From an uncultured Anaerolineaceae bacterium (lineage in GTDB: Bacteria > Chloroflexota > Anaerolineae > Anaerolineales > UBA4823): 64,000 nt of DNA. The DNA is taken from positions 13,512-77,511 of the forward strand of contig CAZWFQ010000004.1 in the NCBI GenBank assembly GCA_964633225.1, in the 5' to 3' direction. Positions 19,791 through 22,438 of the stretch are shown here, one piece after another. The notes under the pieces were generated by a model that was not told the DNA's origin, made no database searches, and saw only the letters and a list, made by a program, of their open reading frames with translations. How positions within the stretch are numbered: the stretch's first letter is position 1; each line of letters begins with the position of its first letter. The position numbers were made by a program, and so were the translations under genes.

Positions 19791-20234
19791 TCAGTTATTC
19801 GATTCTAACATAATCGTAACGGGGCCATCATTGCGAATCTCTACCAACATGTGCGCCCCGAACTGGCCTGTTTGGGTTGGCACGCCCAATTCGCTCAGAA
19901 TCGCCGCAAACCGCTCAACCAATGGGCGGGCAATCTCTGGCAGGGCCGCATCCGTAAAAGATGGGCGGCGGCCCTTGCGCGCATCCGCATACAAGGTAAA
20001 CTGAGAGACCACAATCGCTGCCCCGCCCACATCCAACAATGAGCGGTTCATCTTCCCCTGCTCATCTTCAAAGATGCGCAGGTTGGCTGCCTTCTCTGCC
20101 AGGAAGCGCGCTTGCGTTTCGCCATCCCCTGGCGCGATACCTAATAGAATGACCAGCCCTGGCCCGATCTCAGCCATGGGCTGGCCTTCCACACTCACCT
20201 TACCATAAGTCACACGTTGTAAGATCAGGCGCAT
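19791..20234 (-). CDS. dtd: D-aminoacyl-tRNA deacylase
   Basis: 147 aa with 'MRLILQRV', '[17 protein letters not shown]' and '[15 protein letters not shown]'. Confidence 0.95.
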
Positions 20235-20239
20235 ATTGG

Positions 20240-20773
20240 TTACACCCGCAAGGCCAAGGCCACGGCCGCGGCCCAGGCCAGGATCTTGAACTTTCCATCT
20301 GAAAGGGCCTGCTCCAACTCAGCACGCGAAAGCAGCACCATTTCTTGCGCTTCCAGGTCATCGCTGTCGATCTCGCAAACCCGCCGCGCCTGGCGCGCCA
20401 GGTACAGGTTGCCCGTGGCCACGCCCCGGTTTGGATCCACTAAGAAATGTCCCAGGTCTACCCAATCGTCAGAGACGCAGCCGGTTTCCTCGCGCAGCTC
20501 GCGCTGCGCCGCGGCCAGCGGCACCTCGCCCGGCTTGAGATAGCCGCCCACCAATGCCAGCATCGGCTCAGGCACGCCATATTTGCGCTGCCAAAAGCAC
20601 AGGTACTCTCCGGCCTCGGTTTGCACCACCACGTTAATATAGTCTGGGGTGGTCAGCCAGGGCCAATCTGGAATGACGCGCCCATCGGGCAGCTCCACCG
20701 CGTGGTGTTCCACCACCAACCAGGGAGACTGGTCCAAGACCACCTTGCGAGAAAGGGTTTTCCACGGCAGCAT
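20240..20773 (-). CDS. NUDIX hydrolase
   Basis: Nudix box '[23 protein letters not shown]'. Confidence 0.9.
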
Positions 20774-20778
20774 GGCGT

Positions 20779-21771
20779 TTAAGGCAAGCCCACAGCCCGC
20801 CGCACGCCCACCATGGTTTGCTCGGCAATGACACGCGCCCGGCGAGCGCCATCATCCAAAACATCCAGCACATAAGCCGGGTCTTGCGCCAGCTTGTTAC
20901 GGCGTTGGCGGAAAGGATCCAGGTTGGCGTTCAGGTTGGCGGCGAAGCGCTTCTTGCAGTCCACGCAGCCAATACCGGCCTTGCGGCATTCGCTGTCAAT
21001 CATCGCCACTTCGTCGACCGGCGAGAAGATCTTGTGCATCGAAAAGACGTTGCACACCTCTGGGCGCCCCGGATCGTTGCGGCGCATACGCTGAGGGTCG
21101 GTCACCATCTGCATCACGCGCTGCTGTGTTTCCTCGGGTGTAGAGGCCAGCTCGATGTGATTATTGAGGCTCTTGCCCATCTTCTCCACACCGTCAATGC
21201 CCAACACCTTGGGCACTTCAGTGTTCTTCATCTGCGGCTCCACCAGCACGTCCGTGTTATAGCGGAAGTTAAAAGAACGCACCGCTTCGCGCGCAAATTC
21301 CAGGTGCGGCGCCTGGTCAACGCCCACCGGCACCACGTTGGCCCTGTAGAGCAAAATATCGGCTGCCATCAACACCGGATAGCCCACCAGCCCATAATTC
21401 ACGTTGTGGGGCTGCTGGCGTACCTTCTCTTTGAATGTGGGCAGGTCGGTCAGTTTGCCCAGCGGCGTGACCATCGAAAGGACCAGGTGCAGCTCAGTCA
21501 CCTGCGGCACGTGGGATTGGATAAAGATGATCGATTCCTCCGGGCGGATGCCTGCCGCCAGGAAATCGAGGGCCATTTCCATCGTATTCTGGCGCAAGTT
21601 GAGCGTATCCTCAACCGTGGTCAGGGCGTGCAAGTCCACGATACAGTAGACGCAGTCGTAATCTTCTTGCAATGCCACGTAATTCTTGATCGCGCCCAGG
21701 TAATTGCCCAGGTGCTGGCGCCCGGTTGGGCGCGCCCCCGAAAAAGCGCGGCCTTTCTTCATTGTAGCCAT
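20779..21771 (-). CDS. trpS: tryptophan--tRNA ligase
   Basis: HIGH-type 'PTGRQHLGNYLG', KMSKS-type 'KMGKS', 330 aa class-I TrpRS layout. Confidence 0.95.
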   Translation of the reverse strand: MATMKKGRAFSGARPTGRQHLGNYLGAIKNYVALQEDYDCVYCIVDLHALTTVEDTLNLRQNTMEMALDFLAAGIRPEESIIFIQSHVPQVTELHLVLSMVTPLGKLTDLPTFKEKVRQQPHNVNYGLVGYPVLMAADILLYRANVVPVGVDQAPHLEFAREAVRSFNFRYNTDVLVEPQMKNTEVPKVLGIDGVEKMGKSLNNHIELASTPEETQQRVMQMVTDPQRMRRNDPGRPEVCNVFSMHKIFSPVDEVAMIDSECRKAGIGCVDCKKRFAANLNANLDPFRQRRNKLAQDPAYVLDVLDDGARRARVIAEQTMVGVRRAVGLP

Positions 21772-21806: not shown

Positions 21807-22052
21807 TTATGACCCGAACAGCTTGCGCACCAGCCCAGTGACCTCGCCGGGTTGGGCATGGCGGTCGGTTTGCAGCTTCGAATAGACAAGCACATTGTTG
21901 GCGGTCACTTCAAAACGCCCGCCATCCGATGGGATGAGCGTGATCGCCTCGATGTGGGGCTCAAATTCTTTGAGCAGCTCGCTGGCCAGGCTCACGGCCC
22001 GGTCAGTGTAATGTCAAACTGCGCAGTACTCCACTGTAATCTTCCACAACAT
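21807..22052 (-). CDS. SelW/Rdx-family protein with in-frame TGA (candidate selenocysteine, CxxU redox motif)
   Basis: The minus strand reads AAGGAGG-ctgtt-ATG TTG TGG AAG ATT ACA GTG GAG TAC TGC GCA GTT TGA CAT... This gives MLWKITVEYCAV(U)HYTDRAVSLASELLKEF... and joins in frame to track ORF 21807..21995. 'I.VEYC..U' plus 'GGRFEV' match the Rdx fold family. TGA is at 22014-22016. Confidence 0.75.
21982..22006 (-). other. bSECIS-like hairpin downstream of the in-frame UGA
   Basis: RNA 5'-CUGACCGGGC-CGUGA-GCCUGGCCAG-3'. The stem has 9 pairs (one is G-U) plus one A-C mismatch. It starts 7 nt after the UGA, and the apical loop begins 17 nt after it with G at loop position 2. Confidence 0.55.
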
Positions 22053-22068
22053 AACAGCCTCCTTTGAG

Positions 22069-22340
22069 AAAAAAAGACCCCCGCCGGTGATGCGACGGGG
22101 GTGAAAAGCCAGCTTCACGTTCAAGCACGGTCAGGTTGGCCCTCTTTGCCAATCTACGATGCCTTTTGCCCTGGTAACGGTGGCAACTCCGGCTTGGGCT
22201 ACTCTCAACAATGATTTTGCCCTTGCAGCTCCGAGGGCCATTCAGCGCAGGCGCACGGGCGGGGTTCTCAGCCAACAACCGCTCTCTGTTCCGCCGCATC
22301 CACGCGTACTCGTCCTCATCAAAGCTGATCAGTTTTGATT
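22069..22340 (-). promoter_or_regulatory. T-box-like leader RNA (UGG/Trp specifier candidate) with intrinsic terminator
   Basis: The minus strand shows, in canonical order: a GA/K-turn-like 'GAUGAGGACGAGUA' (about 22320), AG-bay 'CAGAGAGC' (about 22285), specifier context 'CUGAA-UGG-C' (UGG at 22238-22240) closing with 'CCUCGGAGCU', F-box 'CCGUUA' (22175-22180), then terminator ACCCCCG-N12-CGGGGGU-U7 (22069-22103) ending just before the SD of the SelW-like gene. The T-box 14-mer itself is not cleanly recognisable. Confidence 0.5.
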
Positions 22341-22346
22341 TTGCGT

Positions 22347-22355
22347 AGTATATCA
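22347..22355 (-). promoter_or_regulatory. extended -10 promoter element (TGATATACT) for the leader RNA
   Basis: TG-n-TATACT on the minus strand, about 25 nt upstream of the GAUGAG motif. No good -35. Confidence 0.4.
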
Positions 22356-22438
22356 CAAAACGTCACAGCCCAATGAGGCTCTTCTCTGTGATCTCTGTGT
22401 CTCCGTTGTTTTCTCTTGGCATTCCACACCGCACACAG

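Follow-up and report, generated by a model that had tools for sequence, protein, structure and literature searches.

In the Sargasso Sea data, SelW-like proteins with a CxxU motif outnumber every other selenoprotein family, and they form a listed bacterial selenoprotein family with few Cys homologues (PMC1088965, PMC1794560). Bacterial members of this family have been known since 2005. The bSECISearch model of the bacterial SECIS element, summarised in Fig. 2 of PMC13188914, describes a hairpin with a loop of 3-9 nt, an upper stem of 4-16 bp and a G in the first two loop positions; in the same model the UGA lies 16-37 nt from the loop and the minimum free energy (MFE) is at or below -7.5 kcal/mol (PMC13188914). 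The gene described here lies in a 64,000-nt stretch of DNA from an uncultured Anaerolineaceae bacterium, the whole of which is referred to below as the window, and it belongs to this known family. Since it agrees with the family on every point that can be tested, its identification is a correct but ordinary discovery, and we hold with high confidence that UGA codon 13 of this selW-like gene is recoded to selenocysteine (Sec). The less ordinary feature of the locus is the conserved first place of the gene in a unit with trpS and dtd, here behind a Trp T-box-like leader. The features of the locus are collected in Table 1.

Table 1. Coordinates of the selW-like gene, its neighbors and its RNA elements in the window, with the selD genes of related loci.
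Feature	Position	Strand	Evidence
T-box-like leader, UGG (Trp) at specifier position	22131..22331	minus	Rfam RF00230, 56.1 bits, E=1.9e-11
Intrinsic terminator, 10-bp stem with 8 GC pairs, U run, directly before SD	22069..22102	minus	Terminator scan
Shine-Dalgarno AAGGAGG, 5 nt (CTGTT) ahead of ATG	22058..22064	minus	Sequence; SD-like core at equivalent start in 75/81 orthologues
SelW-like (Rdx family) selenoprotein gene (predicted)	21807..22052	minus	Translation with TGA=U, PF10262, TIGR02174, AF2, TM to 2FA8
In-frame UGA, codon 13, predicted Sec of C10-x-x-U13 redox motif	22014..22016	minus	TGA in 80/80 related loci; aligned Cys in homologues
Extended hairpin CUG-A-CCGGGC / CGUGA / GCCUGG-C-CAG (1-nt bulges), from 7 nt after UGA	21982..22006	minus	Extension window-specific
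Core hairpin CCGGGC-CGUGA-GCCUGG	21986..22002	minus	Fold; same or alternative hairpin in 77/81 orthologues; pairing and compensatory changes
trpS, 35 nt after selW-like stop	20779..21771	minus	ORF; Pfam tRNA-synt_1b on same gene in L082
Nudix gene, 5 nt after trpS	20240-20773	minus	ORF; Pfam NUDIX in L082
dtd, 5 nt after Nudix gene	19791-20234	minus	ORF; Pfam Tyr_Deacylase in L082
Sec-type selD in related loci	L045:15470-16501; also L011, L026, L034, L038, L050, L057, L063, L074, L076		

The selW-like gene consists of 81 codons and a TAA stop (21809-21807) and begins on the minus strand at an ATG (22052-22050). From this ATG the frame runs MLWKITVEYCAV-TGA(22016-22014)-HYTDRAVSLASELL..., and the minus-strand letters around the start are ...CTCAAAGGAGGCTGTT ATG TTG TGG AAG ATT ACA GTG GAG TAC TGC GCA GTT TGA CAT TAC ACT GAC CGG GCC GTG AGC CTG GCC AGC... 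With the TGA written as U, the product is MLWKITVEYCAVUHYTDRAVSLASELLKEFEPHIEAITLIPSDGGRFEVTANNVLVYSKLQTDRHAQPGEVTGLVRKLFGS (81 residues). Under translation table 11 the sole ORF at the site is 21807..21995 (minus), which encodes 62 aa from a GTG start; this GTG has no Shine-Dalgarno sequence (SD) and sits in the loop of the bSECIS-like hairpin described below. The earlier note had named this short ORF as the only one listed, had placed AAGGAGG-N5-ATG upstream in the same frame with the TGA at 22014-22016, and had contrasted the SD of the full-length start with its lack in the truncated ORF. The ORF list agrees with the first of these statements, all coordinates in the second are right, and the third holds too; among the orthologues, 75 of 81 sequences have an SD-like core ahead of the corresponding start. 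A 117-aa ORF at 22003..22356, which overlaps the T-box-like leader, is spurious.

The sequence around the TGA also occurs in contigs other than that of this metagenome-assembled genome (MAG), which comes from a bioreactor metagenome. The leader and gene (294 nt) are contained exactly in a 9,556-nt Logan contig (L081), and the first 60 nt of the gene, TGA included, are found unchanged in another Logan contig (L082). In metagenome run X1 one 9,556-nt contig spans 21304-22400 with zero differences, and in a manure metagenome from a separate study (X4) a contig spans 21993-22305 and has no difference at the TGA. The exact matches in L081 and L082, together with the X4 contig, indicate that the TGA is no assembly artefact, and the same codon is found in all 80 relatives compared (best 80 of 193). 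The chance that the TGA arose by a sequencing or assembly mistake in this MAG is accordingly negligible. Within the window TGA also terminates 11 of the 40 ORFs of at least 200 aa, indicating that the codon is not reassigned genome-wide.

The protein obtained by reading through the TGA matched Pfam PF10262 (Rdx) over positions 1-74 of 74 (E=8e-21, 74.5 bits, cut-off 22.6), and a full-length Rdx match was obtained only with this read-through. The score against NCBIfam TIGR02174 CXXU_selWTH was 57.8 bits, above the cut-off of 34.2. The score of 75.3 bits against the NF041051 SelTWH_Campy equivalog lies below its cut-off of 88, so that the protein is related to that group and is not a member of it. 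An AlphaFold2 (AF2) model built on the alignment of 81 orthologues (pLDDT 94.4) has the topology beta1(3-10), CxxU loop, alpha1(16-33), beta2, beta3, beta4, alpha2, with the CxxU loop between E3-10 and H16-33, and superposes on PDB 2FA8 with a TM of 0.93 and rmsd of 1.0 A (Foldseek). By this predicted rather than solved structure, the SelW-like product is assigned a thioredoxin-like beta-alpha-beta-beta-beta-alpha Rdx fold. The motif itself is C10-A-V-U13, in which C10 and the U column are invariant among the 81 sequences. A sequence search of the PDB returned 2FA8, 2P0G, 3DEX, 2OBK, 2OKA and 2OJL, whose CxxC aligns with the CxxU. In an alignment with Cys- and Sec-containing homologues, which had been proposed as a check, the U13 column is the second Cys of the CxxC in 2FA8 and 2P0G and is also Cys in one database homologue (P0027), with TGA in 80 of 80 loci. 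The assignment to a SelW/Rdx-like family with CxxU, and the proposal that reading TGA as Sec restores the Rdx N-terminus, were both borne out by the two family models, the extent of the Rdx match and the predicted fold.

For a comparison across genomes, one genome per species was scanned, which gave 193 confirmed relatives among 599 candidate stretches, and the best 80 of the 193 were used. These 80 are Anaerolineales/Chloroflexota MAGs and the isolate Thermanaerothrix solaris 4228-RoL (L017), at 64-90% identity; the closed chromosomes CP070639.1 and CP070785.1 hold the orthologues L038 and L078. By tblastn, a TGA is aligned with U13 in 80 of the 80 loci, and a start codon is present 10-12 codons upstream of the TGA in every one of them. 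In the nine codons that precede the TGA, the entropies of the three codon positions are 0.63/0.43/1.46, and in the 50 codons after it they are 0.64/0.38/1.40, compared with a flat ~1.82 in all three phases in the 27 nt of leader before the start codon. This agreement on both sides of the TGA indicates that protein-coding selection acts on the short N-terminal segment just as it does on the remainder of the gene, and pN/pS relative to the closest relative (L001) is 0.15. In 27 of 81 sequences a non-start codon (GTC, ATC, GCC, ACT or GTT) stands in place of the GTG of the truncated ORF, which rules out the 62-aa reading as the conserved product.

These data bear directly on whether the UGA is a true stop, in which case the locus would be a decayed gene or would yield only a 62-residue C-terminal fragment from GTG 21995 without the redox motif. 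The lone 62-aa ORF under table 11 agrees with such a stop, as do the public gene calls, which are mostly 60-62 aa; however, a stop does not account for a TGA kept in every locus of the best 80 of 193, for upstream codon-phase constraint equal to that downstream, for the low pN/pS or for a GTG that lacks an SD and is a non-start codon in a third of the sequences. The fragment would also lack beta1 and the CxxU motif and so lose the first strand of the predicted fold. We regard a true stop as very improbable. The earlier note had set a test beforehand, namely whether homologues start at the downstream GTG with nothing conserved across the TGA, and on the evidence above this test came out in favor of the Sec reading.

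Public protein calls for the orthologues are either 60-62-aa fragments or "full-length" proteins that read CAVW, in line with the expectation that standard gene callers would cut or miss the gene. The 80-aa "full-length" database homologues (P0003-P0030) were considered as Cys or Trp variants and rejected, being table-4 calls (TGA=Trp) on short metagenome contigs. Only one genuine Cys form was found among the homologues, P0027, which has CAPC and 59% identity; its gene context differs, with no trpS nearby and a YtxH gene upstream (L086). In that locus (L086:492-1034) another Rdx gene, annotated at 61 aa, follows ~110 nt after the Cys-form Rdx gene; it may be a truncated Sec-type paralogue, making a tandem Cys/Sec pair.

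The CAVW entries raise the alternative that the UGA is read through without Sec, by a near-cognate tRNA-Trp or by Cys-tRNA, to give a CxxW or CxxC protein. Near-cognate read-through of UGA by tRNA-Trp is known in bacteria, and this lends the alternative some plausibility. However, the CAVW entries, as table-4 calls on short contigs, provide no evidence of Trp, the column in question holds the family's catalytic Cys/Sec, and leakiness would not explain the strict retention of UGA over TGC or TGG. Taking these points with the hairpin and selD data below, we consider read-through without Sec improbable, and recoding to Sec remains the preferred reading.

Downstream of the UGA the window sequence folds into a core hairpin of 6 bp with a 5-nt loop, CGUGA, that has G at loop position 2 and begins 17 nt after the UGA. 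The core alone is predicted at -8.8 kcal/mol and the 42 nt after the UGA at -14.0 kcal/mol. As had been proposed earlier, the loop distance and the position of the G fit the published constraints. The 61 nt around the UGA have an MFE of -23.6 kcal/mol (z = -2.87), a stability that none of 200 shuffles reached. Among the 81 sequences, an uninterrupted hairpin with conforming loop, G position and spacing was found in 77, in two registers, and the energy limit was also reached by the uninterrupted stem alone in 67. Register A has its loop at +17/18, with CGUGA or G-first 3-nt loops (GUG, GUC), and accounts for 55 sequences when only those loops are counted. Register B, which has its loop at +21/22 and takes the form GCCGUCA-GUU-UGACGGC or a variant of it, accounts for 22 sequences and covers most of those that break A.

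Comparison of the orthologues supports pairing in both registers. In register A 94.5% of cells are paired, a value that falls to 48% or less once the 3' partner is slid, much of the hairpin pairing falling in invariant columns; compensatory changes were seen as CG>UA in 11 sequences and GC>AU in 7. In register B, G:C>A:U exchanges couple Val>Ile with Ala/Thr>Met, so that an amino-acid pair (Val/Ile with Thr/Ala/Met) co-varies because of the RNA pairing. The mean MFE of the 42 nt after the UGA is -11.8 kcal/mol versus -8.5 when synonymous codons are randomised with the protein held constant, an excess stability that is consistent but modest per sequence (p<=0.05 in 19 of 81), and because the sequences are related the shuffle controls overstate its significance. 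The curated Rfam SECIS families gave no match even at E<=10, which, given the diversity of bacterial SECIS elements (PMC13188914), is nothing out of the ordinary.

Conservation of a SECIS-type hairpin at the right distance argues against read-through of the UGA by a tRNA other than Sec-tRNA(Sec). The hairpin had first been drawn with an extension of the stem, and only part of that drawing stood: the core is of a conserved type, whereas the extension pairs (20-22/42-44) form in a minority of orthologues only. This 3-bp CUG/CAG addition is window-specific and lacks covariation support, and it is not claimed here as part of the element. A long lower stem, in which the UGA itself would be paired, was likewise set aside, as it is 76% paired across the orthologues with essentially no covariation.

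By tblastn with E. coli SelD, 10 related loci (best 80 of 193) were found to carry a selD homologue, which shares the strand of the selW-like gene and lies 3.5-8 kb downstream of it. Each of the ten has a TGA at the catalytic Cys17 position (SCAG-U-ASKL), and those ten lineages must thus decode UGA as Sec; the presence of relatives whose own selD needs true Sec decoding is a further point against read-through without Sec. Gene callers would truncate these ten Sec-type selD genes as well. With E. coli SelA, SelB and SelD as tblastn queries, no homologue was found in the 64-kb window, and ARAGORN found no tRNA in the window and 44 tRNAs in the 80 related loci, none of them tRNA-Sec. Three contig-edge matches to SelB were rejected as EF-Tu (MAKQKF...GHIDHGKTT), and in three relatives (L049:10-405, L006:15-227, L031:1-198 (-)) the selW-like gene has a divergent tuf gene (EF-Tu) upstream of it. 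Source-metagenome contigs matching a relative's selD numbered 48-64 per bioreactor run, came from many organisms at 80-95% match, and none could be assigned to the organism of the window; since the depth of the window (~8 in X1-X3) is not distinctive, these contigs give no organism-specific conclusion on selD. The Sec machinery is presumably present in this MAG.

A mechanism for the locus may be proposed on this basis. Translation would start at the SD-led ATG (22052), and the UGA would be decoded by SelB with Sec-tRNA(Sec), SelB being recruited by the small hairpin, which lies inside the coding region and has its apical loop starting 17 nt past the UGA. Cys10 and Sec13 would form a selenenylsulfide redox pair, and the 81-residue product would be a SelW-like (Rdx) thiol/selenol oxidoreductase. 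Both the identity of the inserted residue as Sec and the redox function of the product are what we infer from the evidence given above.

On the minus strand, leader, terminator, SD, selW-like gene, trpS, Nudix gene and dtd form a compact unit in which the selW-like gene is the first cistron. The match of the leader to RF00230 falls below the gathering score of 93, with Stem I and the specifier region aligning well and the 3' antiterminator part poorly; the terminator downstream of it is strong. Similar sub-threshold T-box matches were found upstream of the orthologue in 3 of 12 loci scanned (L001, L039, L051), so that a T-box-like Trp leader is present in at least four genomes, that of the window included. 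Of the 80 loci (best 80 of 193 relatives), 74 have trpS as the next gene after the orthologue, and 73 have dtd on the same strand no more than 3 kb downstream; in loci without trpS, dtd follows the orthologue, mostly directly. In a sludge metatranscriptome (X25), a 338-nt contig is ~94% identical to the leader region (window 22049-22360), and the leader of a close relative thus appears to be transcribed. The X25 contigs, which come from relatives only (90-95% identity), cover the leader and parts of trpS and leave the selW-like coding region uncovered.

The tryptophanyl-tRNA synthetase (TrpRS) encoded by trpS in the window has the motif C240-x21-C262-x6-C269-x2-C272, and the four Cys are kept in 68 of 69 related TrpRS. 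In Thermotoga maritima TrpRS a C-x(21-24)-C-x6-C-x2-C motif binds a [4Fe-4S] cluster (PMC2954223), and the motif of the window protein fits it. One possible reading, which we offer tentatively and think rather unlikely, is that the Anaerolineales SelW-like selenoprotein serves as a dedicated redox partner of the co-transcribed translation-fidelity genes and not as a free-standing antioxidant. The selenoprotein could, for instance, keep the cluster-ligating Cys, or the cluster, of an oxygen-sensitive Fe-S-type TrpRS reduced. Support for this coupling to TrpRS and Dtd consists of conserved gene order, and a full-text literature search found no paper on a link between a selenoprotein or SelW and trpS. 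If it were correct, TrpRS would be the first defined client for a SelW-like protein. The conserved association with an Fe-S-type TrpRS and Dtd gives a testable way into the function of SelW-like proteins.

The main practical value of the finding lies in annotation. Gene callers cut the 81-codon gene to 62 codons without its catalytic motif, or render it as CAVW under the wrong code, and as a result of these records selenoproteome surveys based on called proteins would miss a gene encoded by 193 of 599 candidate stretches. The work adds to the SelW-like selenoproteins a large Anaerolineales (Chloroflexota) clade that gene finders systematically mis-call, and it documents two interchangeable SECIS registers within one orthologous group.

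The window protein shares with Atu0228 of Agrobacterium tumefaciens (2FA8) and the Cys-form structures 2P0G, 2OBK, 2OKA, 2OJL and 3DEX the same predicted fold (TM 0.86-0.93, rmsd 1.0-1.7 A), 24-33% identity and a redox motif in the same loop. Unlike the window protein, the members of this group carry CxxC, need no recoding and are ~20 residues longer. Mouse SelW (2NPB) resembles the window protein in its CxxU motif and thioredoxin-like Rdx fold, with a TM of 0.75 to the model (Foldseek), whereas mammalian selenoprotein W has its SECIS in the 3' UTR, uses other recoding factors and is more distant at 27% identity. In relation to the bSECISearch consensus (PMC13188914), the loop, stem, G position, spacing and energy of the window hairpin all lie within the limits, while one difference is the presence of two registers in one orthologous group, with the loop at +17/18 or +21/22. 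The gene also closely resembles the bacterial SelW-like selenoproteins of Zhang & Gladyshev 2005 (PMC1088965) and Zhang et al. 2006 (PMC1794560), which belong to the same HMM family, have CxxU after beta1, are ~80 aa long, have an in-frame UGA followed by a small hairpin with an apical-loop G, and have few Cys-form homologues. The present gene differs from those described earlier in belonging to an Anaerolineales (Chloroflexota) clade with its own two-register SECIS and a conserved place directly upstream of trpS and dtd.
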